A stretch of DNA of 32,000 nt from an uncultured Opitutales bacterium (GCA_934660865.1 CAKUIA010000010.1:60001-92000); one strand, 5' to 3'; positions 511 to 31,831 are shown, numbered from the stretch's first letter. The notes: a model not told the origin generated them from the sequence alone. Translations and numbers: made by a program.

Positions 511-1710
511 ATGATGAGAGCTTTTTTAATTCTGTTTTCGGTGCTTGCGCTTTTTTGCGGTTTTGCAAATGCGCAGGGCATTTCCGGCGGCGTAGTTTCA
601 ATCGACAAGGGGCTTAGCAAGGCGCCCGTATACAACATCGCCGTTTCCTCGGATTCCCCCGAACTTAAGGCCGCGGCAACCCGCGCGTTTTCAAGCCACG
701 GTAGCTACAACATTGTGCAGGAAAAATCCTCGCAGTTTGTTTTCCACTTTACCAGCGTTGGCGTAAATGCGGTAAAGCTTTCGATTAAAGGCGGCGGCAC
801 ATTCGAGCAGATTGTTTACGGCGACAACACCTTTAACGCCCTAATGCGCGCGTGCGACTTGGCGGTTGTAAAAACCCTCGGCGGCAACGGCTATTTTGCG
901 GGCAAAATAACCTTTGCAAGCGACAAAACCTCGTTTAAGGAAATCTACGCGGGCGACTTGTTCTTTAACAGGGTTCGCCAGCTTACAAACGACAAATCCG
1001 AATCTATATTCCCCCTTTGGAGCGCCGACGGCACTAAAATTTTGTATTCTGGCTACTACAGGTCGGGCTTTATGGATTTGTACGAGCTTGATTTAAGCAA
1101 GGGCACAAGAAGGCCCTTTGCCCAATACAGGGGCGCAAACGCAGGCGGCGCGCCAAGCCCCGACGGCAGCAGGGTTGCAATGATTTTAACTACAAGCGGC
1201 AACGCCGAAATTTGGCTTGCAGACTCCAACGGGCGCAACGTTAAAAGGCTTACAAAAACGCAGGCTGTGGAATCTTCGCCGAACTGGTCGCCCGACGGCA
1301 AAACTTTGGTGTTTGCCTCCGACGCGCGCGGCGGCCCGCAAATCTACAAAATGTCGGTTAACGGCGGCAAGTTTGTAAGAGTGCCCACAAACATAAGCGG
1401 CTATTGCTCGGAGCCTTCGTTTAACCCAGTAGACCCGTCTAAAATAGTGTTTACGGCCGCAGTTGCAAGGGGCTTTCAGGTTGCGGTATACGACGCCAAA
1501 GAGCGCAAAAGCAAGTTTGTAACCTCGGGCTCGGAAAGGTGCTCGCAGCCCAAGTGGCTTGCCGACGGCCGCCACATAATATTTACAAAGGAAAAGGGCG
1601 GCAAACGCTCGTTGTGGATTGTAGACTCGGAAAGGGGCAAGCAGACTTTGCTTCACTCGAAGTCTATAGGCAACTGCTGCGAAGCAAGCTACTTTTACCC
1701 CGTACGATAA
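511..1710 (+). CDS. tolB: TolB-like periplasmic beta-propeller protein
   Basis: The N-terminal signal peptide is MMRAFLILFSVLALFCGFANAQG. Repeated TolB/WD40-like blade motifs are present (WSADGTKILY, PSPDGSRVAM, GNAEIWLADSNG, PNWSPDGKTLVFASDARGGPQIY). No tolQRA or pal genes are adjacent. Confidence 0.75.
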   Translation: MMRAFLILFSVLALFCGFANAQGISGGVVSIDKGLSKAPVYNIAVSSDSPELKAAATRAFSSHGSYNIVQEKSSQFVFHFTSVGVNAVKLSIKGGGTFEQIVYGDNTFNALMRACDLAVVKTLGGNGYFAGKITFASDKTSFKEIYAGDLFFNRVRQLTNDKSESIFPLWSADGTKILYSGYYRSGFMDLYELDLSKGTRRPFAQYRGANAGGAPSPDGSRVAMILTTSGNAEIWLADSNGRNVKRLTKTQAVESSPNWSPDGKTLVFASDARGGPQIYKMSVNGGKFVRVPTNISGYCSEPSFNPVDPSKIVFTAAVARGFQVAVYDAKERKSKFVTSGSERCSQPKWLADGRHIIFTKEKGGKRSLWIVDSERGKQTLLHSKSIGNCCEASYFYPVR

Positions 1711-22054: not shown

Positions 22055-23521
22055 TTATTTTTCAAAATTCGCATCGGAAACAACCGCGCTTTCGGGCGGC
22101 ACAACAAGCCTGTTTAGCCCCAGCGGATTCGGATATTGCGAAAGCATTGCGCTGAAATCCGAATCGCGGGCTTTGCCGAAGAAATTTTGCCTGCACAAAA
22201 ACCCGGTTTTTGCCAGGCGCCCCGCGTATGCGCCGCCGCCTGAAAGCCTTTTTATGTCGGCTAAAACCTGGCGCAAAAGCCCGTTTGTAGAGGGCACTTC
22301 GTTGTCGGTGCAAATGTATGCGTTTATCGTTTTGTACAAAGGCGATTTTTCGGAAAGCTCAAGCCAAAGGGCGTTGTCGGAAAGGAACAATTCGTCGCCT
22401 TTGTCCAAAACTTTTAGCGCGCAGGCCAATATGTCTTTGCCGTTTAAGGCAATGGCGGCGTCCGTCAACGCCCTGGCGCACAGCGCATATTCGTTTGCCC
22501 CCGCAAAAGTTTTGCTGTCGAAATTTGTCTTAAGCGAATTAAACTGGCATTTTTGCGAAAGATTGCGGCATATTGCCCTTGCAAAATTTGCGTATTTTTC
22601 GCCGCCGCCAAGCTTATATGCCGTTGCCTGCACGCTTAATGCCAGCGCATTTTCGGCCACAAGGTTTTTGCTTTCGGGCGGGGTAAATACACCGTTTTCG
22701 TCTATAAAGGCCGAGCACTTTTCGGCAAAGCGCATGAATATGTCGCGCGCCTGCCGCGAGTCGAACAATATGGCAAATTCGCCTATTGCAAGGGCGTATT
22801 GCGCGTGTTCTATAAAGTTTTCGCTTTTCAACACAAAACCGTTTAGCAGCTGCGATTTTGCAAGAAGCGCACTTTGCGCGCAAAAGGGGTTGTTTGCGTC
22901 GAAAAACGCCGTTCTAAACGACACTTTTTCCGCGTTCGCCAAAAGCGCGGCTTTGTGTTTGGTGTTTGCCTGCCCCGACATAAAGAACGAGAACAGTGCG
23001 CCGCCGTCGTCCTTAAACGGGCCAAGCTGCGTGAAATTTCTGTCGAAAAACACCCTTTTGGGAAGCTTGTCGAAATGCTTTTTGTTTGTTTTGTAGGCGT
23101 TTAGCGCGCCCGAAAGAGCCGTCTTTAGCGAGGGGGCAAAGAAAGTGTCGTAGCCGCCCAAATGGCCGCTTAAAAATACGGGAAGCATTTTGGGTGTTAA
23201 AACGCCGTATGCCAGTTTGCCGTTTAGCCCGCCGTTTTTTGCGGCGCATTGCAATGCCCTATAGTCGGCGCCAAATTCGTCTATTTTTGCCGACACAAAG
23301 TTTTCGGATATTATTTGCCTTGCGGTATTGTCTATATTGCCGATGTTTTCGGTATGGAAAAATACGGGCATATCCCTTTCATTTGCCGCGGCGAAATTGC
23401 CCCAGTTTGCCGAATTTGCCCCGTCTATAGTTTCGGGTTTTTTGCCCAGCACGGCCTTTAGCGCAAAAAATACGCTAAGAACCGCAAAACCGGCCGCCAA
23501 GAATTTTCTTAAAAAACCCAT
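22055..23521 (-). CDS. Membrane-anchored YyaL/DUF255-like protein lacking the thioredoxin-type cysteines
   Basis: It has an N-terminal TM anchor. The blocks DMPVFFHTENIG and ISENFVSAKIDEFGADY align by eye with the KPVLVSIGYS and LNENFVSIKVDREERPD blocks of YyaL. The CHWCH segment between those blocks is missing. The rest is Ala/Leu-rich and helical, consistent with an alpha/alpha barrel. Confidence 0.45.
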   Translation of the reverse strand: MGFLRKFLAAGFAVLSVFFALKAVLGKKPETIDGANSANWGNFAAANERDMPVFFHTENIGNIDNTARQIISENFVSAKIDEFGADYRALQCAAKNGGLNGKLAYGVLTPKMLPVFLSGHLGGYDTFFAPSLKTALSGALNAYKTNKKHFDKLPKRVFFDRNFTQLGPFKDDGGALFSFFMSGQANTKHKAALLANAEKVSFRTAFFDANNPFCAQSALLAKSQLLNGFVLKSENFIEHAQYALAIGEFAILFDSRQARDIFMRFAEKCSAFIDENGVFTPPESKNLVAENALALSVQATAYKLGGGEKYANFARAICRNLSQKCQFNSLKTNFDSKTFAGANEYALCARALTDAAIALNGKDILACALKVLDKGDELFLSDNALWLELSEKSPLYKTINAYICTDNEVPSTNGLLRQVLADIKRLSGGGAYAGRLAKTGFLCRQNFFGKARDSDFSAMLSQYPNPLGLNRLVVPPESAVVSDANFEK

Positions 23522-23604
23522 ACTTGCTAAGACACTTGATTCGCGTATTTGTGCCCGACTTTTTTAGATTGCTTGACTTGCCAGTTTTTTTCGGGGAAAT
23601 TCGT

Positions 23605-24993
23605 ATGTATATGAATTTTATATTGTCGGCTTTGGGAAGAATTTTTGCGATAACGCCCGATTTTATATTGAGGGGCTTGTGCCTGTTTTCGGCGGAATTT
23701 ATTTGTGTGTTTATGCCGCGCCGCAAACGCGTTTTGTATTCGAACATAAAAAAGTGCTTCCCGCACATACCGTTTAAAAAGGTAAGGGCAATAGCAAAAG
23801 AGTCGTCGGCAAGAACGGTTGAAATGGCGCTGTTTGTTTTGGCGAGCCCGTATTTGTCGGACAGCGAGCTGCGCAAAAGGTTTAAGCTTTCGGATATGGT
23901 TGTGCAAAACCTGAAAAGATATGCCGAAAATCCGAAGCCGCTTGTTTTGCTAGTTCCGCATTTTTGCATGATGGAGGCCATTACAATGCTGCCCGTTTTG
24001 CACGACGGCAAAACCCCTAAAACGGGGGTGTTTTACCGCCCATTTAATTCTGCGGGGCTGGAAAAATGGATTAAAAAAAGCCGCTCGCGCTTCGGCATAA
24101 ATTTGATTTCGCGTCGAAACGGATTCGGCAGGGCGTTCGAAATTTTGGGCGAAAACGGCTGCATGGCGGTGCTGTTCGACCAAAACCCGCTAACTGCGGG
24201 GTATCTTACCTGGTTTTTCGACATGGTTTGCTATACCTCGCATTTGGCGGGTATGCTGGTTAAAAAAAGCAATGCCGACTGCGCCGTGTTTTACGCGCGG
24301 CGCACGGGCTTTTGGCGGGCAACCATAGACGGCGAGTTTTTAAACGCAACCGAGGTGGAAGACGTTGTAAAAGAATCGAATCTATGGCTGCAGTTGCACA
24401 TGAAGGCCGACTTGAGCACCGCCGAAGACTGGCTTTGGCTGCACAATAGATGGAAGTGCAAGCGCAACATAGGCGAATGTCTGAACCTAAAACACTCTAA
24501 AGACTTGCTGGACTATACGTTGCCCGAAAAATTCAACGGGGTGTATCCGCGCAAGCTAAAATATTTTATAACAATGCCCGACAGCGCAAGCGATGCAACA
24601 GCCCTTTTGCCGCTTGTCGAAAAAATGTACAATTCACGCCGAGACGCCGACATTGTTCTTTTGTGCCGAAAGGGCGTATATTACTCCTTAAAAGACGCAA
24701 AAATAGAATTCGACCTGATTAAAATGCCCGAAAAGCGCGGCGGCATTTTAAGGTATTACAAGGGGCTTATCGCCCTGCGCGACACATTCCCCGACGTGCA
24801 TTTTGTATTCGATACAAGCGGCAAAAGCGATTTCGAAACATGGCTGATAGGGGCGTTTGTTACTGTTGGAATATCCGAAACGGGAAAGAACAAAAAGCTA
24901 AAGTGCCCCTTTGTTTTAAAAGAGGGCGACCGCGATTTGCCTTTGTACGGCAAGATAGAAAAAATGCTTTTGTTTTGCGGCCTAAAAGAATAG
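23605..24993 (+). CDS. Fusion protein: LpxL/HtrB-type lipid A late acyltransferase joined to the N-terminal half of a GT9 (heptosyltransferase-like) fold
   Basis: The acyltransferase part has the HX4E motif (PHFCMME) and the family-typical end WLWLHNRWK. The C-terminal 170 aa or so (KYFITMPDSASDATALLPLVEKMYNSRRDADIVLL, RDTFPDVHFVFDTSGKSDFETWLIGAFVTVGIS, LPLYGKIEKMLLFCGL) resemble only the N-terminal Rossmann domain of GT9. The start is ambiguous between 23605 and 23611. The ORF-track start at 23524 would leave 2 nt to the divergent gene. Confidence 0.7.
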   Translation: MYMNFILSALGRIFAITPDFILRGLCLFSAEFICVFMPRRKRVLYSNIKKCFPHIPFKKVRAIAKESSARTVEMALFVLASPYLSDSELRKRFKLSDMVVQNLKRYAENPKPLVLLVPHFCMMEAITMLPVLHDGKTPKTGVFYRPFNSAGLEKWIKKSRSRFGINLISRRNGFGRAFEILGENGCMAVLFDQNPLTAGYLTWFFDMVCYTSHLAGMLVKKSNADCAVFYARRTGFWRATIDGEFLNATEVEDVVKESNLWLQLHMKADLSTAEDWLWLHNRWKCKRNIGECLNLKHSKDLLDYTLPEKFNGVYPRKLKYFITMPDSASDATALLPLVEKMYNSRRDADIVLLCRKGVYYSLKDAKIEFDLIKMPEKRGGILRYYKGLIALRDTFPDVHFVFDTSGKSDFETWLIGAFVTVGISETGKNKKLKCPFVLKEGDRDLPLYGKIEKMLLFCGLKE

Positions 24994-25030: not shown

Positions 25031-25070
25031 AAAAAGCCCTTTCCAAAGCGGGAAGGGCTTTTTGTATTTT
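25031..25070. terminator. Bidirectional rho-independent terminator between convergent genes
   Basis: A 9-bp stem pairs GCCCTTTCC (25036-25044) with GGGAAGGGC (25050-25058) around a 5-nt loop. An A-tract lies upstream and TTTTTGTATTTT lies downstream, so either strand gives a hairpin followed by a U-run. Confidence 0.7.
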
Positions 25071-25083
25071 GCGTATTTGCAGC

Positions 25084-26379
25084 CTACGCCTTTGCGCCTA
25101 CTTTGTCTTTTAGCGCCTTTGCCGCAGTAAGAACAAGCGTTGTAAGGTTTGCGCCGTATTCGAACGGGGCCGAAAGCTTGCCTTTGCCGCAGATTGCGTT
25201 AAGCCAGTTAAGGTGGTGGTTGTCTTTTTCTATCTTTTCGCCGAATTCGCTATTAAGCTCGTCGGCGTATTTTTTGCCGAATTTGCGCGGCAACAACACG
25301 GGCTTGCCGCCCAAGTGCATTGCGGGCGAATACAGCACGCCCCTTGTGCCTATAATAAGCTGGCCGTCGCCGCAAAGGCGGTTAAAGGGCAAGTCTATGT
25401 CGTCGGGTATTATCGGCAGCAGGTCTTTTTGTATTTGCTCGTAGTATTTTTCGCCGGGCTTTACGTTCTTAAAGCCGGCGTACCAGTCTATCTGAACGGG
25501 GCTGTTTTTCTGGAATTTGCTGTTTGCGAACATTCTTATATGGTCGCACATGGGAATGGAAATTTCGTTGCCGCCAACCTGGTTTACGCAAATTGCGCTA
25601 AAGGGGCCTTCAAGCTCCAAAGCGTAGAATGGTATGTCGAGTATGTGCGACGAAATGTCGCCTATAGCTCCGTTCGAAAAACGCCAAAACGGCCTCCAAA
25701 ACTGGTCTACATATTTATGGTTGTAGGGTATGTATTCGGCGTTTTCGCCGAGCCAGCCCTTCCAGTCTAGCCCCTGCGGTATGGGTTCTTCGGGATAGTA
25801 GCTTTGCATTGCGCAGCCCGCCCACGATTTAGACCTTATTGCGATAACCCTTTTTATGTCGCCTAAAATGCCCTTGCGTATTACGTGCGAGCAAATTCTG
25901 ATGCCGCGTCTGGAGTGCGACTGTATGCCTAGCTGCAGGCAAAGATTGGGATTTTCGGCTCCAAGCTGTTTTAGGGCCTTTACTTCGTCTAAAACGCGGC
26001 ACATCGGCTTTTCGAGGTAGACGTGCTTTTTTTGCGATATGGCGTATTTTGCTATGGGGAAATGCTGGTGGTCGGGCGTGGAGATTACAACGCCGTCTAT
26101 CTTGTCGCCCATTTTGGCGAACATTTCCCTATACGATGTAAAAAACGGGATTTTCTGCGCCGATTCTATTTTTGCCGTAACTGCGGGGTTGATGTCGCAA
26201 ACGGCGACAATGTTGCAGGGCAGCTGGCTGAATATATTGTAGTTTACCTTGCCTATAACGCCCAAGCCTATAAGCGCAATGTTTGGCTTGTTTTGCGCCT
26301 GCGCAAACGCCTTGTACGACATTGCCGCCATTGCCGAAAACGCAGTTGTTTTTATGAAGTTTCTCCTGTTTATTTCCAT
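25084..26379 (-). CDS. Tat-exported Gfo/Idh/MocA-family NAD(P)-dependent oxidoreductase (possibly a GH109-like or glycoside-oxidising enzyme)
   Basis: The twin-arginine signal is MEINRRNFIKTTAFSAMAAMSYKAFAQA. It has the Rossmann motif IALIGLGVIGK and the family EKP motif (VYLEKPM). A strong SD (AGGAGG, plus-strand 26390-26395) lies 10 nt upstream of the ATG. Confidence 0.85.
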   Translation of the reverse strand: MEINRRNFIKTTAFSAMAAMSYKAFAQAQNKPNIALIGLGVIGKVNYNIFSQLPCNIVAVCDINPAVTAKIESAQKIPFFTSYREMFAKMGDKIDGVVISTPDHQHFPIAKYAISQKKHVYLEKPMCRVLDEVKALKQLGAENPNLCLQLGIQSHSRRGIRICSHVIRKGILGDIKRVIAIRSKSWAGCAMQSYYPEEPIPQGLDWKGWLGENAEYIPYNHKYVDQFWRPFWRFSNGAIGDISSHILDIPFYALELEGPFSAICVNQVGGNEISIPMCDHIRMFANSKFQKNSPVQIDWYAGFKNVKPGEKYYEQIQKDLLPIIPDDIDLPFNRLCGDGQLIIGTRGVLYSPAMHLGGKPVLLPRKFGKKYADELNSEFGEKIEKDNHHLNWLNAICGKGKLSAPFEYGANLTTLVLTAAKALKDKVGAKA

Positions 26380-26414
26380 TTTTTCTGTTCCTCCTAAAAA
26401 ATGCCTGTTGCCTA

Positions 26415-27182
26415 TTATAGTTTTTGAATGGTCATTCCGCCGTCAACCTTAAAAATCTGCCCCGTGCTGTAGTCGAAGTCGCCGCGGGCTACGGCGGCTG
26501 CAACCTTGCCTATGTCGTCGGGAAAGCCCCAGCGTTTTGTAACGCAAAGGCCTTCGGATATAAGGCGGTCGTACTTTTCGGTTACGCACTTTGTCATGTC
26601 GGTTTTAATTACGCCGGGGCGTATTTCGAACACTCCTATGCCGTATTGCCCAAGGCGCGAGGCGAAAAGCTGCACCGCCATGGAAAGCCCCGTTTTGGCT
26701 ATGCAATAGTCGGCGCGGTTTTCGGAAATTACCTGGGCTGAAACCGAGCTTACAATTATTATGTTCGCCTTAAAGTCGGGGTTCTTCTCCTTTTCGGCAA
26801 TCATTGCGTTTGCAAAGGCCTGCGTAAGGAAAAAGGTTCCCTTTAAGTTTGTGTTTAAAAGCCAGTCGAAATTTTCCTCGGTCATTTCCAGCATGTCGGC
26901 ACGAACTTTCGGGGCAACCCCCGCGTTGTTTACAAGCAAATTCGGCACGCCTACGGCCTTTATGGTTTTTTCGACAATGTCGGCGCGCGAGGCCTTGTCG
27001 GCAATGCTGCCTTGAATGTAGTGCGCCTTTTTGCCGCTGATTTTCGAAATTTCGTCTACGGCGTCTTGGCAAAGCGAAATATCCCTTGTGCCGTTTAACG
27101 CCATTTCAAAGCCGAGCTTTGCAACGTTTTTTGCAATGCCGAAGCCTATGCCCCTTGTAGAGCCCGTTATAAGTGCCTTCAT
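26415..27182 (-). CDS. Short-chain dehydrogenase/reductase (3-oxoacyl-ACP reductase-like)
   Basis: It has TGSTRGIGFGIA, NNAG and the catalytic S...YCIAK. I prefer the ATG at 27182 (MKALITG), which lies 1 nt after the stop of the upstream gene, over the ORF-track start at 27209. Confidence 0.85.
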   Translation of the reverse strand: MKALITGSTRGIGFGIAKNVAKLGFEMALNGTRDISLCQDAVDEISKISGKKAHYIQGSIADKASRADIVEKTIKAVGVPNLLVNNAGVAPKVRADMLEMTEENFDWLLNTNLKGTFFLTQAFANAMIAEKEKNPDFKANIIIVSSVSAQVISENRADYCIAKTGLSMAVQLFASRLGQYGIGVFEIRPGVIKTDMTKCVTEKYDRLISEGLCVTKRWGFPDDIGKVAAAVARGDFDYSTGQIFKVDGGMTIQKL

Positions 27183-27183
27183 T

Positions 27184-28536
27184 TTACGCCAATCCTTTCG
27201 ATTTTGCAAATTCCCTGCCTTGCCTGTATTCTGGCAGATAAACTTTCGAGTCGAACATAACGCAGCCCGAGCGCGATTTTAAATCTTTCATAATCTGCGA
27301 GCATTTCGAGCACGTTATGCAGCATTTTTTGCCGTCTATTTCGCCGAACTGTTTCAGGTCGTTGGGTATGTTCGGATACGCCAAAAGCCCGCGCCCGAAA
27401 CCCGCAAGCGTGCACATTTTGTTTTTCAGCATTTCGGCCGCCACATTAACGCAGCACTTGCCCAGCCACGAAGTTCCCGCCGAAACTACGACGGTGTCGG
27501 GGTTTGTTTTTTGGATTTTTTCGACTACGTCTATAAACCTTTTTACGCCCAAAATAGGGTGCTCGGGCGAGGCGGGGGCTCCCGCAACATTCATATTGTA
27601 GGGTCTGTTCCAGTGGGGGCTGGTTCTGGGGTAGCCTATCGAAACGCCGAGCAAATCTATGCCCATTGTCTTTAGCTCGGAAATTAGTTTTAAGGGCTCT
27701 GTCATATCGAACTGAATGGAGCCTTCCTCCTCTTTGACGCCCCAGCCGTAGGGGAAGGGCGATGGCTCGTAAACCGTAAGCCTTGTGCATACAAAGGTAT
27801 TTTTTGAAAGCGCCTGCTTTATGTATTTTACGCAGTCTTTGTAAAAGCGGGTTCTGTTCTCGTACGAGCCGCCGTATTTGCCGGGGCGCAGCCTTGCCTT
27901 GAAAAGCTCTGCAACCAAATAGGCGTGCACCGACTTCATATCCACGCCGTCAAAGCCCGCCTTTTCCGCCAAAACGGCGGCCTGCACAAACTTTTCAACC
28001 AAAGCGTCAAGCTCGTCGTCCGAGATTATTTTTGCGTTGTCGTCCAGCGGCTGTATTTTTTCCAAATCGGGTATTCTCTGCGCTATTACGGGGGCGTTTA
28101 CGCCGTAGGGGCGGCTGAACCTGCCCGAATGTGTAAGCTGCAAAATCATTGTGGGGGCTTTGCCGTTTTTTGCAAGTCCCGCCGCCTTGGTTTCGTCTAC
28201 AAGCTTTTTATACGAGTCTACATTGCCGCTTGAAATGTAGAACTGCTTCGGGTTCGACTTGCCCTCGGGCACAACGGCGCAGGCCTCCGCCCAAATAAGC
28301 CCCGAGCCGCCCTCTGCCAGGCGCCTGTACCTTCTTAGCGAAAAATCGGTTATTGCCCCGCTTTCGGGGTCGGCGTCTACGCCCTCCATTGGCATCGAAA
28401 CAATGCGGTTTGGCAAGTCCAGCGTTTTGCTTTTAAAAGGTTCAAGCAAAATGTCGGTGTTGTCGCTAAAGGGCAAGCTTACATTCTGTTCGGCCTGCAC
28501 CCTAAAAAGATCGTCTTTAGACAATATTCTATCCAT
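27184..28536 (-). CDS. Old Yellow Enzyme-family FMN oxidoreductase with a C-terminal Cys cluster (2,4-dienoyl-CoA/enoate reductase N-terminal module only)
   Basis: OYE TIM-barrel motifs are LPNRIVSMPME, AEGGSGLIWAEA, LQLTHSGR, AGFDGVDMKSVHAYL, GKYGGSYENRTRF and GFGRGLLAYPN. The protein then carries CITCSKCSQIM...SGC and ends about 25 aa later. Confidence 0.8.
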   Translation of the reverse strand: MDRILSKDDLFRVQAEQNVSLPFSDNTDILLEPFKSKTLDLPNRIVSMPMEGVDADPESGAITDFSLRRYRRLAEGGSGLIWAEACAVVPEGKSNPKQFYISSGNVDSYKKLVDETKAAGLAKNGKAPTMILQLTHSGRFSRPYGVNAPVIAQRIPDLEKIQPLDDNAKIISDDELDALVEKFVQAAVLAEKAGFDGVDMKSVHAYLVAELFKARLRPGKYGGSYENRTRFYKDCVKYIKQALSKNTFVCTRLTVYEPSPFPYGWGVKEEEGSIQFDMTEPLKLISELKTMGIDLLGVSIGYPRTSPHWNRPYNMNVAGAPASPEHPILGVKRFIDVVEKIQKTNPDTVVVSAGTSWLGKCCVNVAAEMLKNKMCTLAGFGRGLLAYPNIPNDLKQFGEIDGKKCCITCSKCSQIMKDLKSRSGCVMFDSKVYLPEYRQGREFAKSKGLA

Positions 28537-28554
28537 ATTAAAACAGCTTTTTAA

Positions 28555-29910
28555 TTATATGCAAAATTTGTAGTAGGGTTGTTTGTCGAGCTCTCTTTGA
28601 AGCAAAAGGGCAAGCTCTGCAAGGTGGTAGTCGCCCCACATGCTAGATTCGCCGTAGGGGGCGAGATTTTTGTCGGGCGCGTAGTCCCAGTTGTTGGGGC
28701 GGTGGTATATGGAGTGCAGCAAAAGCCCCTGGTGCCTTTTGTTTAGCGAAACATAGTCGTCGCTTAAAAGGCGCTTCGAAACAATTAGGGCATACCTTGT
28801 GTATTTTTCGTCTTTTAAGTATTTGCCGAGCCTGTATAGCCCCTGGGCCGCTATCGCGCTTGCCGACGAATCTACCGGTTCGTAGGGGTTTTTTATTTGG
28901 GCGGGTTTGTCCAGATAGTCGTCGCCCAATTTGTAGAGGTTTGGCGCGCCCGTGTCCCAATAGCAAATGCCGTCGCTTGGGGTATATTTAATGTAGAAAT
29001 CGCAAACGGCTTTTGCGGCTTTAAGCATTGTTTGCATTACGGTTTTTTTGGGGGCTTTTGGCGAAAATTCCCCTGCGTCTATTTCGCTTAGGGCTTCAAG
29101 CTCTTCGGCAAAGCCGAGCATTGCCCAGGCCAGGCCCCTTGTCCAGGTGGTAAACGCGCAATAGCCCTGCTGCGAGTTCGGGCACCTGTAGTTGCCGTCG
29201 TTTGTGTTGAAAACCGATTCGTGCGCAACCCTGCCTTTTATGTCGTAAAAGTCGCGGTTTGTGCCGTACCAAACATTGTATTTTGCCGTGGTTAAAATGT
29301 GTTGGCACGCCCTTTCCAAAAGGCTTATTTTTTTGTCGTTTTCGCCCATAAGCGAATGCCCAAGCTTGTGGGCAAGCACCAATGCCCTGCAGCTTCTTAT
29401 TGTGTCTATAAAAAGCGATTGGGGGCCGTTAAACGAGTATATGTATGGGTTTTGCGCGAAGTTGCTCCAGCGCGAAGCCTGTATGGCCCCGCTTGTTTTA
29501 AGCGCAAGCTCGCAAAAGTTTAAAAGCCATTCGTCGCGCTTTATCTTTTTTTCGACAATAAGCCTGCGCAGATTGCCGTAGGTTGAAACGTTGTTAAAGC
29601 CGTGGTCGTGAACGCCTATGTGCGAAACGTGCTGCGCCATATTTTTCAATATGCCGTCGCTTGCGTATTTAAGCGAAAATTTGTCCTTTGTAATTTCGTA
29701 GTGTATAAGGGGCATTCCGTACATGAAGCCCTGCGTCCATTCCGTCCAGCCGCGGGTTGTATATTTGCCCTTGACGGTAAATACCGGCGAGCCTTTTGCC
29801 GTGTCGTATTCGTTCGCCAAAAGTTTTATTTTTTCGCCCAATAAAGACCAAAGGCGTTTTAAGTCGCCCTTAAGGTCTTTTAGTTGAATAGACGGGTTGT
29901 CTTTTATCAT
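28555..29910 (-). CDS. Glycoside hydrolase family 88-type unsaturated glucuronyl hydrolase (cytoplasmic)
   Basis: GH88 blocks recognised are WTEWTQGFMYGM, VHDHGFN, QQGYCAFTTWTRGLAWAMLGF, CYWDTGAP, DSSASAIAAQGL and QGLLLHSIY....ESSMWGDYHLAELALLL. No signal peptide is present. Confidence 0.8.
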   Translation of the reverse strand: MIKDNPSIQLKDLKGDLKRLWSLLGEKIKLLANEYDTAKGSPVFTVKGKYTTRGWTEWTQGFMYGMPLIHYEITKDKFSLKYASDGILKNMAQHVSHIGVHDHGFNNVSTYGNLRRLIVEKKIKRDEWLLNFCELALKTSGAIQASRWSNFAQNPYIYSFNGPQSLFIDTIRSCRALVLAHKLGHSLMGENDKKISLLERACQHILTTAKYNVWYGTNRDFYDIKGRVAHESVFNTNDGNYRCPNSQQGYCAFTTWTRGLAWAMLGFAEELEALSEIDAGEFSPKAPKKTVMQTMLKAAKAVCDFYIKYTPSDGICYWDTGAPNLYKLGDDYLDKPAQIKNPYEPVDSSASAIAAQGLYRLGKYLKDEKYTRYALIVSKRLLSDDYVSLNKRHQGLLLHSIYHRPNNWDYAPDKNLAPYGESSMWGDYHLAELALLLQRELDKQPYYKFCI

Positions 29911-29912
29911 AA

Positions 29913-31712
29913 TTACAGATTCCTTTCCGACCAGGTGGGTTTAACGGTTCCCCTTATTTTCAAATCCTTCCACAAAACCGATATTGCATTGCCGTTTTCG
30001 TCTATTTCGGGCTCTTCGGCGCTGGTGTTTTTCGGGTTAAGCTCGAAGCCGAAAACAAAGCCTGCCTTGTCCATTTTTTGCAGGTTGAATTTGCGCGGGC
30101 TGCCCGAATATATAATGTAGTCTATATATGTTCCCTTTTTGTCGAATGAGGTTTCCCACTTGCCTTTGGGCAAGCCGTCGAATTCGGCATACATTAGCGC
30201 CGCCGAAAACAGCTGGTTGCCCGCCTTGAAAAACACGGGGCTGTTCCATTCTTTTGGTGCGTTCCACTCGGCCTTGTTGCAGTTTTCCAGCGCAAACCTA
30301 ATCCTTATGTCTTTGGCCTCGAATATGCCGTCTTTTAGGCAGCCAATCCACGGGTGTTTAACGCCGTAGTTCTTTATGAAATTTATGAAAGACAGGGTTT
30401 TTTCTCCGCGTCTTTCGGTGAACATTCTGCCGCACGAAAAGTCGTAGAAATCTACATACATTCTCACCGTCATGCAGGCGGCTTTGCCCTCGCTTAAAAA
30501 GTATACCGAAAAGGGCCTGCGCTGGTTCCACATAAGCGAGCGGTTTAGCGTGCCGAATGCGTAGTCGTTTGTAAGCGAGCATACGCCCGTCATTTGGGGC
30601 TCTTTTTTCACGAAAATATCCCTTTCAACGCGCGGATATTTCGGGTCTAAAAAGTAGCTGTGGAATTTTTCGGGCACTTTGCAGTTCGAAGAAAGGCTGT
30701 ATCCGTAGCGGCGCAGTCCCGTCTTTAGTTTGCCGTCCAGCGCCTTGTCGATGAAAGCGAGAACATAGTTGCCCGATATGCTGCTGTACGACCTGCTGTT
30801 TGGGCCTGCCCACTGCATTGTGGGTTTGTGCCAGTGGCGCGCAATCATGCTCCAGCCGTAGTCTACAAGCTCGTCCACCTTTTTCGAGTCTTCGGGGTCT
30901 GTAATTCTTTCCTTCAGGCGCGCAAGCTCCTCTAAAGCCACTATTGTGTAGGTTGGGCTGTTGAATTCCTCAAAGCCGTTGTTTTCGCGGGTGAAATTTA
31001 AAAATGCGTTTAGCTTTGCGTTTGAATATTCCTTTATGTCGGGCAAGTCGAAAAGGCGCGAAGCCGTATACGTCAAATATGTGCCCATAATTGCAATGTT
31101 TGTGTAGCTAACCGAAACATTGCGCTTTTTTACGGCTTGGCACGCCTTTATTATCGATTCTTTCATTACAGACTTTGTCTTGTCGCTTAGGCGGCCGTTA
31201 AAATCTATGTATATTTCAAGAAGCGATACCCCGCAAAAGTCGGCCCAGTTGTAGTCTATGGGAGATTTTTTTGTGGCCAGCGGCTCTTCCTTATAATACG
31301 GCCACACGCCGTAATAGGGTTTTGTTGCGTCTTTTTCCTGCAAGGCGCAGGCGTTTTGTATGCACTTTTCGGCCAGCGGCAAAACCGAGGGGTCGTTCGA
31401 GGCAAGAAGCACCCACGCATAGCTAAGCGAGTCTCTTACGGGGTGGTAGTTTGCCGCCTTTTGTGCGTCGGTATGGTAGTTCCAGCCGTTTATTTTCGAT
31501 ACAAGCATATTTTCGCTTGTGTCGAACTGGTGTATTGAGCGCTTAACCTGGTCTTTAAGGCTTGCAATGTCGTCGGCCGACAAAACCCTTTCGGCGCAGC
31601 GAATACCGTCTTTTTCGAAAAAGGCCCTGTTTTGGGCATTGCAACAAAACGAAAATACCGACGACAACAGCGCCGCCGATACCGCAAAGGTAGACATCAT
31701 ATATTTTAGCAT
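29913..31712 (-). CDS. Secreted 599-aa protein of unassigned family (helical N-terminal half, beta-rich C-terminal half); candidate glycan-active enzyme
   Basis: The signal peptide is MLKYMMSTFAVSAALLSSVFSFCCNAQ. The ORF is long and clean and sits 2 nt upstream of the GH88 gene. The segment GFEEFNSPTYTIVALEELARL is reminiscent of the toroid domains of heparinase II/III-like lyases, but I cannot assign a family. Confidence 0.6.
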   Translation of the reverse strand: MLKYMMSTFAVSAALLSSVFSFCCNAQNRAFFEKDGIRCAERVLSADDIASLKDQVKRSIHQFDTSENMLVSKINGWNYHTDAQKAANYHPVRDSLSYAWVLLASNDPSVLPLAEKCIQNACALQEKDATKPYYGVWPYYKEEPLATKKSPIDYNWADFCGVSLLEIYIDFNGRLSDKTKSVMKESIIKACQAVKKRNVSVSYTNIAIMGTYLTYTASRLFDLPDIKEYSNAKLNAFLNFTRENNGFEEFNSPTYTIVALEELARLKERITDPEDSKKVDELVDYGWSMIARHWHKPTMQWAGPNSRSYSSISGNYVLAFIDKALDGKLKTGLRRYGYSLSSNCKVPEKFHSYFLDPKYPRVERDIFVKKEPQMTGVCSLTNDYAFGTLNRSLMWNQRRPFSVYFLSEGKAACMTVRMYVDFYDFSCGRMFTERRGEKTLSFINFIKNYGVKHPWIGCLKDGIFEAKDIRIRFALENCNKAEWNAPKEWNSPVFFKAGNQLFSAALMYAEFDGLPKGKWETSFDKKGTYIDYIIYSGSPRKFNLQKMDKAGFVFGFELNPKNTSAEEPEIDENGNAISVLWKDLKIRGTVKPTWSERNL

Positions 31713-31721
31713 AATATGCAG

Positions 31722-31750
31722 ATACTAAGGAAAATCGCCTTTTGTGTAAA
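31722..31750 (-). promoter_or_regulatory. Sigma70-type promoter of the five-gene glycan operon, apparently leaderless
   Basis: On the minus strand this reads TTTACA (31750-31745), a 17-nt spacer, TAGTAT (31727-31722), then 9 nt (CTGCATATT) to the ATG at 31712. No SD is present. Confidence 0.45.
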
Positions 31751-31783
31751 GATTTTTTTGAAAGGGCTGTTTCCTTGAAACGC

Positions 31784-31808
31784 AAAAAAAACCGCACAAA
31801 TTGTGCGG
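31784..31808 (-). terminator. Rho-independent terminator of the upstream minus-strand gene
   Basis: The minus strand reads CCGCACAATTTGTGCGG (a 6-7 bp stem) followed directly by eight T. It lies 24 nt after the TAG stop at 31834-31832. Confidence 0.65.
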
Positions 31809-31831
31809 CGTTAAATCTTTTCGGGCAAAGG

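Follow-up and report, generated by a model that had tools for sequence, protein, structure and literature searches.

How might a bacterium process a uronic-acid-bearing glycan with a gene set in which a GH88-like hydrolase stands next to three oxidoreductases, and in which the isomerases KduI (a cupin) and DhuI (RpiB-like) have no counterpart? This question is raised by an operon of five genes in a stretch of 32,000 nucleotides, here called the window (GCA_934660865.1 CAKUIA010000010.1:60001-92000), whose host is an uncultured gut bacterium of the Opitutales (Verrucomicrobiota). The operon encodes an exported protein of 599 residues (U599), a divergent GH88-like protein (GH88L), a short flavoenzyme of the old yellow enzyme (OYE) family with an iron-sulphur (Fe-S) motif, a short-chain dehydrogenase/reductase (SDR), and an oxidoreductase of the Gfo/Idh/MocA type (Tat-Gfo) that carries a signal for the twin-arginine translocation (Tat) system. 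No gene for a DhuI or KduI isomerase was found in the operon or in the rest of the window. We tentatively read the operon as a lineage-specific three-module assembly for the use of uronic-acid glycans, a reading that has a somewhat smaller chance of being right than of being wrong.

The steps would be as follows. Exported U599 would cleave the glycan by beta-elimination, so that the newly formed non-reducing end carries a 4,5-unsaturated uronate, and GH88L, judging by what is known of its family, would hydrate the vinyl ether to 4-deoxy-5-keto-uronate (DHU). By comparison of gene slots among related loci, the OYE and the SDR would then turn DHU towards 2-keto-3-deoxygluconate (KDG) in place of KduI and KduD: the SDR would take the reductase step, and the OYE the step for which other lineages use a small cupin or an AP_endonuc_2 protein that resembles isomerases, with its Fe-S cluster passing electrons from or to a partner whose gene lies elsewhere. 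Tat-Gfo would act as an accessory glycoside 3-dehydrogenase on the glycan or its fragments. Dehydration and ene-reduction starting from DHU were considered and rejected, because they remove the hydroxyl group needed for aldol cleavage.

The closest known system is the route that runs through an unsaturated glucuronyl hydrolase (UGL) and then KduI/KduD or DhuI/DhuD from DHU to KDG, in which, as here, a GH88-type enzyme opens the lyase product and an SDR follows (PMC12838403). KduI and DhuI are themselves a non-homologous isomerase replacement within this pathway (PMC12838403). An occasional link to an aldolase for 2-keto-3-deoxy-6-phosphogluconate (KDPG) is also common to both. However, GH88L is only about 20% identical to the solved UGLs and about 70 residues longer, KduI and DhuI are lacking, the SDR scores below the KduD cut-offs, and the middle slot is filled by an OYE, an AP_endonuc_2 protein or a small cupin, with an additional Gfo enzyme in cassettes elsewhere.

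A preliminary description of the window, made from the DNA alone, had called the second gene product a GH88 enzyme outright. Sequence scores do not carry this name: GH88L reaches 25.3 bits with the Pfam GH88 model (PF07470), below its gathering score of 26.6, many of its relatives are without a precomputed PF07470 match, and the sequence match to UGL 1vd5 (E 2e-9) covers the C-terminal half only; a profile of the family reaches E 6.5e-13. What stands is the fold and the motif. The GH88L model is an (alpha/alpha)6 barrel whose closest folds are the GH88 UGLs 3wiw, 1vd5 and 2zzr (E 1e-12 to 1e-10, TMt 0.73-0.79), and the next fold group follows eight orders of magnitude behind, at E 1e-4. An invariant VHD102HGF aligns with the catalytic HDLGF of 3wiw, 2zzr and 3anj. 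The first catalytic Asp of GH88 enzymes is D88 in the Bacillus UGL and D115 in that of S. agalactiae, and the second is D149 and D175, respectively. Residues 105-229 of GH88L were left unaligned by HMMER, and the second Asp may, by position alone, correspond to the invariant D169 in SLF(V/I)DT. With at least 8000 matches, and 55-62% identity across Bacteroidota, Verrucomicrobiota and Kiritimatiellota, GH88L is, as judged from its model, a divergent and highly conserved GH88-like family with the GH88 fold and the HDxGF motif.

The neighbours of GH88L were compared in a survey anchored on this gene (80 metagenomic loci plus others), in which cassette types were counted from loci with at least 3.5 kb downstream. 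Three types emerge. A 277-residue AP_endonuc_2 protein and a 383-residue cytoplasmic Gfo (Gfo383) form type A, found in 23 loci, 21 of them with an SDR; type B has an OYE directly after GH88L in nine loci, eight of them with an SDR, which in both types is of the window type (45-57% identity); type C combines a 150-residue cupin with a Gfo in several loci, including other Opitutales and Kiritimatiellales, and no SDR was seen in it. An SDR homologue in the same range of identity is present in 46 of the 82 GH88L loci and is the most constant partner of GH88L. The small cupin was checked as a possible known isomerase-slot enzyme and is not specifically KdgF- or KduI-like by sequence. Simple calls of open reading frames (ORFs) gave no partners of GH88L in the high-GC loci L162, L167 and L168. 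The expected linkage of OYE and SDR to GH88L was borne out, the three being neighbours in about ten unrelated loci. The commonest partners of GH88L are, however, AP_endonuc_2 plus cytoplasmic Gfo, or cupin plus Gfo, and not an OYE.

The OYE and AP_endonuc_2 never co-occur in the GH88L loci so counted, and a neighbour-joining tree built on GH88L places the OYE loci at scattered positions among the AP_endonuc_2 clades, which suggests repeated swaps. Two OYE subfamilies, the four-cysteine type of the window and a type of 481 residues, both sit between GH88L and the SDR, which points to independent recruitment. We infer from this comparison that in each cassette a cupin, an AP_endonuc_2 protein or an OYE would fill the isomerase slot while a Gfo, an SDR or both would serve as reductase, and that the product would be a keto-deoxy acid feeding KDPG aldolase. 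Six loci (L095, L124, L125, L166, L175 and L176) have a gene for this aldolase within the cassette or next to it; in L084 it stands beside an OYE-SDR pair together with a PfkB kinase, and it is absent from all 78 control loci outside the Opitutales that contain U599. The OYE is likewise missing from every one of these control loci, and just two of them gave weak SDR matches. Neither the GH88L cassette nor the U599 family is described in the full-text literature that was searched.

The OYE itself matches Oxidored_FMN in Pfam (E 1.7e-33, residues 30-354). The Fe-S motif claimed for it is there: the barrel is followed by a cluster motif CCxTCxxCx12C, CCITCSKCSQIMKDLKSRSGC, conserved in relatives at 45-53% identity. 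Trimethylamine dehydrogenase and FadH space their 4Fe-4S ligands in the same way, as CxxCxxCx12C. An FMN TIM barrel followed by this motif is what the OYE has in common with the Fe-S OYE superfamily (FadH, 2-enoate reductase, BaiCD/BaiH, BilR), and its short form, matching model positions 2-356 of 363, resembles the N-terminal architecture of BilR. The C-terminal FAD/NAD(P)H domain is absent, as the protein ends at residue 450 and gave no Pyr_redox-type Pfam match. Against the equivalog models of NamA, BilR, BaiCD and FadH-like proteins it scores 84-104 bits, with cut-offs of 425-1078, a shortfall of 4 to 10 times, and its context consists of carbohydrate genes, in contrast to the bile acid, bilirubin and fatty acid contexts of the named relatives. 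A further difference from them is a K-x-x-H-x-Y near residues 195-201, with Lys in place of the first His of the usual H-x-x-H/N pair that binds the substrate, and the alignment has it in both GH88L-linked OYE subfamilies. A Lys at this position would suit an anionic substrate. The 481-residue OYE, of a Bacteroidota type, is 32-34% identical to that of the window, homologous over the full length, and keeps three of the four cysteines.

OYEs of the window type also occur, at 45-53% identity, in Kiritimatiellales, Victivallales and Spirochaetes, where they often stand without GH88L in the order OYE, SDR, an optional MtaA-like URO-D gene and FAD_binding_2 (L084:8001-13311, L174:8001-12162, L086:8001-12309). 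The FAD_binding_2 neighbour is a fumarate-reductase-like flavoprotein of 650 residues, and the L084 cluster lies between a PL6-like beta-helix protein with an SSF transporter on one side and PfkB with KDPG aldolase on the other. Going by gene content, these clusters are possibly a separate anaerobic module for acid sugars in which the flavoprotein is the electron partner of the OYE. In L088 a PDDEXK_3 gene (L088:6802-7527) splits an otherwise contiguous OYE-SDR-URO-D set, and this insertion together with nearby AAA_14/DUF4143 genes suggests mobile or defence-type insertions.

The SDR scores 321 bits with NF009386 (PRK12745), above the cut-off of 250, and clearly less with the KduD models (TIGR01832, 119.6 with a cut-off of 338.85; NF005390, 106 with a cut-off of 369). 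The PRK12745 model is itself uninformative. The name that goes with it, 3-ketoacyl-acyl carrier protein reductase, has no backing assay in the literature that was searched, and the nearest solved structures are uncharacterised structural-genomics entries. The Tat signal reported for the last gene product was found as RRNFIK. Among solved structures this protein comes closest to periplasmic glycoside 3-dehydrogenases: the best matches in the Protein Data Bank (PDB) are 8tdf and 8tdh (E 1e-29), with Pfam matches to PF01408 (GFO_IDH_MocA) and PF19051 (C2). The best NCBIfam match, to NF058561 (BT_2158_fam), has 177 bits and stays below the cut-off of 750. The gene caller used for the public contigs starts this protein 16 codons later; the form of 431 residues with RRNFIK is kept throughout in relatives. 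The most fitting role for Tat-Gfo would be that of a periplasmic glycoside 3-dehydrogenase with an accessory function. It is only weakly tied to the cytoplasmic trio, as its presence with them is limited to the Opitutales lineage and L092; the latter keeps the order GH88L-OYE-SDR-TatGfo of the window and continues with an MFS transporter. No periplasmic AP_endonuc_2 or DUF1080 partner is co-encoded in the operon.

U599 carries an N-terminal signal peptide and has no match in Pfam, in NCBIfam or among PDB sequences, so that no existing polysaccharide lyase (PL) family is reached by sequence. To this extent the earlier remark that the operon has no recognisable lyase stands. It does not stand for the structure, since the AlphaFold (AF2) model of U599 (pLDDT 82.6) has a helical toroid followed by a beta-sandwich, a lyase fold which agrees with the earlier suggestion that the protein is a depolymerase. 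In a Foldseek search of the PDB its best 22 matches are lyases and dermatan sulfate epimerase (E 2e-11 to 3.5e-5), the lyases belonging to PL35, PL15, PL17, PL12/21, PL8 and PL33 and including chondroitinase ABC. The family alignment has many invariant Tyr, His, Asn and Arg residues. With lyases of the toroid and beta-sandwich type (PL8, PL12, PL15, PL17, PL21, PL33, PL35) U599 shares the two-domain build and the export signal, and also the pairing with unsaturated-uronyl hydrolases and SusC/SusD.

This pairing comes from a comparison anchored on U599 (80 genomic loci, 78 of them the control loci outside the Opitutales mentioned above). A PF07470 hydrolase of the GH105 type lies within four genes of U599 in 26 of the 78 loci, mostly directly downstream; loci in Bacteroidota carry an extracytoplasmic function (ECF) sigma factor, FecR, SusC and SusD; and the other neighbours include GH29, GH92, GH43 and sulfatase genes as well as genes of a pectin type (GH28, GH106, GH127, GH95, GH141, DUF4861). 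Lyases are classically recognised by such a combination, a lyase-type fold encoded next to an unsaturated-uronyl hydrolase within a polysaccharide utilisation locus, and U599 is therefore read as a depolymerase; judged by its model and neighbours, it is likely the lyase of the operon. The family, for which Pfam has no model, falls into 1240 clusters at 50% identity, and some of these are multidomain. One relative (P0067, 934 residues, locus L022) is fused to a PF07470 (GH88/GH105) domain, and others of 840-1200 residues bear extra domains (P0374, with 1202 residues, P0390, P0400, P0409, P0432, P0452 and P0475).

That the five genes form one discrete and conserved transcription unit is well supported by the sequence features in Table 1 and by their conservation. 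The ORF listing agrees with the preliminary description in giving five coding sequences on the minus strand with spacers of 2, 18, 1 and 35 nt, and the flanking terminators were recovered as hairpins on both sides; the one downstream is usable from both sides because an A-run precedes its stem and a T-run comes after it. All five genes are called in identical order on public contigs, and two Opitutales metagenome-assembled genomes (L004 and L005) hold them at 94-98% protein identity. Both terminators are kept in these two genomes, the upstream hairpin with changes in its loop. The "near-consensus" promoter fares less evenly: it has 9 of 12 consensus matches, and such sites are no commoner than in shuffled sequence (seven found, 7.6 expected), but L004 and L005 show hardly any change in the block that runs from the A-tract through the -35 and -10 elements to the ATG, whereas the sequence just upstream has diverged. 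Tight spacing, terminators and this block together bear out the claim of a discrete unit. The SDR starts at an ATG; the alternative TTG at 27209 proposed by the ORF lister would overlap the preceding gene.

Table 1. Features of the operon and its borders (window coordinates)
Feature	Position	Strand	Basis or remark
Intrinsic terminator of upstream NamZ-type gene	31783..31809	-	hairpin 31809-31791, 8 bp stem, 5 GC pairs, T8
Promoter-like site TTTACA-17-TAGTAT	31722..31750	-	10 nt ahead of ATG; putative function
U599, exported 599-aa protein, candidate lyase of a sequence-orphan family	29913..31712	-	fold model, signal peptide, neighbours
GH88L, 451 aa, predicted cytoplasmic divergent GH88-like hydrolase/hydratase	28555..29910	-	sub-cutoff Pfam match, fold, motif
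Short Fe-S OYE-family flavoenzyme, 450 aa	27184..28536	-	Oxidored_FMN match, Cys motif
Classical SDR (PRK12745 family), 255 aa from ATG	26415..27182	-	NF009386 score
Tat-exported Gfo/Idh/MocA oxidoreductase, glycoside 3-dehydrogenase type, 431 aa	25084..26379	-	RRNFIK, Pfam and PDB matches
Bidirectional intrinsic terminator common to the operon and the convergent gene 23524-24993	25031..25063	.	14 bp stem

Several observations weigh against the reading of the operon as an assembly for uronic-acid glycan use. For U599, no lyase similarity is detectable by sequence, and even the family profile returned noise only against PDB sequences; the TM-scores of the top fold matches are just 0.41-0.49, and the catalytic Tyr, His and Asn of the candidate lyase are not placed on the model. 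For GH88L, the second catalytic Asp is not alignable and is unmapped because hhalign, applied to GH88L and the GH105-type neighbour family, gave no usable alignment. The link between U599 and GH88L is rare outside the Opitutales lineage: L073, with GH88L 4.6 kb from U599, is the sole other locus that joins them. The preliminary description had treated all five genes as linked, and for U599 and Tat-Gfo, whose linkage to the GH88L cassette is sporadic, this did not extend beyond the Opitutales relatives and, in turn, L073 and L092. The OYE and the cupin-Gfo pair are not strictly exclusive, because L088 has an OYE-SDR pair plus a cupin-Gfo pair. The transporters next to the cassette are of MFS or SSF type and resemble carriers of small organic anions rather than of oligosaccharides, and the operon itself is without a transporter, kinase or aldolase. 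Last, the OYE is, to our knowledge, not a known ketol-isomerase, and we could write no convincing mechanism for it in the isomerase slot.

The transporters lead to an alternative that we consider rather unlikely, namely that the GH88L cassette catabolises a free small carboxylic acid and not an oligosaccharide, U599 being merely placed upstream of it in this lineage. Candidate substrates would be a monomeric unsaturated uronate or hexenuronate, 4-O-methylglucuronate after loss of methanol, or a pyran or furan carboxylate. Such a role would agree with transporters that resemble lactate/oxalate-formate, aromatic-acid and pantothenate carriers, although their family matches are all far below the cut-offs. 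The regulators point in the same direction, being AraC proteins closest to HpaA (others are of an HTH-cupin type), and so does the usual occurrence of the cassette as a small stand-alone operon outside SusC/SusD loci. The fold matches of U599 include the exolytic, monomer-releasing PL15 and PL17, MtaA-like URO-D genes accompany OYE-SDR in L084 and L088, and the contig has a CE15 glucuronoyl esterase gene 8 kb upstream. However, U599 and GH88L are separated by only 2 nt in the operon, L073 likewise joins U599 to the cassette, and no candidate for a methanol-eliminating enzyme was identified.

Less probable, and in our view unlikely, is oxidative (3-keto) glycoside cleavage of the Nasseri/Withers type, in which the Gfo would oxidise C3, the aglycone would be eliminated and GH88L would hydrate a 2-hydroxy-3-keto-glycal, while the SDR would reduce the 3-keto sugar and the OYE an enone, as a side branch or alternative. 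The pathway described for AL/BT2156-2160 consists of a Tat-Gfo, an AP_endonuc_2 lyase and a DUF1080 lyase/hydratase (bioRxiv 10.1101/2024.03.25.586180; PDB 8tdf, 8tdh, 8tdi). Of all solved structures, its Tat-exported Gfo type (8tdf, 8tdh; BT_2158 family) comes nearest to the last gene product of the operon, AP_endonuc_2 and Gfo proteins recur beside GH88L, where they make up the commonest cassette, and beside U599, and the contig has a DUF1080 gene about 5.5 kb upstream. A Tat-Gfo adjoins U599 in six of the 78 control loci, three of which have a secreted AP_endonuc_2 as well. In Prolixibacteraceae (L017:7469-9781, L025:7462-9760, L031:3614-5906) a Tat-Gfo of 444 residues and a signal-peptide AP_endonuc_2 of 316 residues, an oxidative glycoside-cleavage pair, stand directly upstream of the candidate lyase U599. 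On the other hand, the operon lacks the DUF1080 and AP_endonuc_2 partners, its Gfo stays far below the family cut-off, and the pathway as described makes no use of an OYE, an SDR or a GH88-like protein. Gfo383 of the cassettes is cytoplasmic and has weak matches to IolG and levoglucosan dehydrogenase, not to BT_2158/BT_2159; the cassette AP_endonuc_2 matches epimerases and isomerases weakly; the cupin variant is without a lyase-type TIM barrel; Tat-Gfo is missing from nearly all GH88L loci; and the linkage to KDPG aldolase speaks for an acid sugar. The order of events suggested in the preliminary description, from oxidation through elimination and ene-reduction to keto-reduction, is a conjecture and one option among several.

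More doubtful still is a direct ene-reduction, the second possibility named in the preliminary description. Here the Fe-S OYE would serve a fermenting anaerobe as an electron sink by reducing the C4=C5 bond of the unsaturated uronate, an alpha,beta-unsaturated carboxylate, or that of a 3-keto derivative of it, before the SDR reduces a keto group. Fe-S flavoenzymes of its class, such as 2-enoate reductases, FadH, BaiCD and BilR, do reduce conjugated C=C bonds, and OYEs of the window type occur in anaerobic lineages, often beside the fumarate-reductase-like FAD_binding_2 protein. However, the reduction destroys the vinyl ether that a GH88-type enzyme requires, so that GH88L and the OYE would compete; the 481-residue variant lacks one of the cluster cysteines; and the KDPG aldolase linkage fits a keto-deoxy acid and not a 4-deoxy uronate. 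That the five genes share a transcript and no pathway, their juxtaposition being incidental, is very improbable: the full set is confined to one narrow Opitutales group and Tat-Gfo paralogues are very numerous in the phylum, but GH88L, OYE and SDR recur in unrelated lineages with two OYE subfamilies, L092 repeats the order of four of the genes, and U599 pairs with unsaturated-uronyl hydrolases in other phyla.

Returning to the uronic-acid glycan reading, a bolder form of it would hold that U599 founds a new, large PL family acting on pectin-like or other fucose- and uronate-bearing glycans, and that the OYE, whether or not it has its Fe-S cluster, is a third non-homologous solution to the KduI/DhuI step, with AP_endonuc_2 and the small cupins as further ones. 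We think that this combined proposal is rather unlikely to hold; OYEs are not known to carry out the type of reaction that the isomerase slot calls for.

The surroundings of the operon are those of a housekeeping region. The remaining genes of the window include no uronate genes, and Pfam scans and gene tables gave no KduI, KdgK, Eda, transporter or regulator elsewhere in it, which extends to the whole window the absence of KduI, transporter and regulator noted earlier for the operon. Rfam and tRNA scans of the window gave no match. Horizontal transfer of the operon was considered and has no support from composition, as the GC content is flat across the window (0.47-0.50 throughout). The upstream gene encodes a NamZ-type muramidase (PF07075) and runs off the end of the window. 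Beyond it on the same contig (L002:1848-4458, 5.5-8 kb past the end of the window) are the CE15 glucuronoyl-esterase-like gene (PF22244) and, on the other strand, the DUF1080 gene of the 3-keto-disaccharide hydrolase family (PF06439); genes for succinyl-CoA ligase, a sigma factor and NamZ separate both from the operon. On the other side, the gene at 23524-24993 (plus strand), which converges on the bidirectional terminator, encodes a protein of the lipid A acyltransferase family (PF03279) that with about 480 residues is much longer than the usual domain. An ORF of 488 residues at 22055-23521 (minus strand) has an N-terminal hydrophobic segment and no Pfam match, and its place beside SecG is conserved on the related contigs. 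A TolB-like PD40 beta-propeller at 511-1710 (plus strand) gives a partial match to PL22 oligogalacturonate lyase (23 bits, with a cut-off of 30), which is probably repeat similarity only.

The GH88-like cassette is very widespread, and solving it would fill a gap in our picture of uronate use by soil, water and gut bacteria and could reveal new flavoenzyme chemistry. Members of the U599 family go unannotated in many polysaccharide utilisation loci; should they prove to be lyases, CAZy would gain a family, and the breakdown of complex pectic or algal glycans an activity that has been missing. The Opitutales operon, in which both parts are translationally linked, offers a compact test case for the two.

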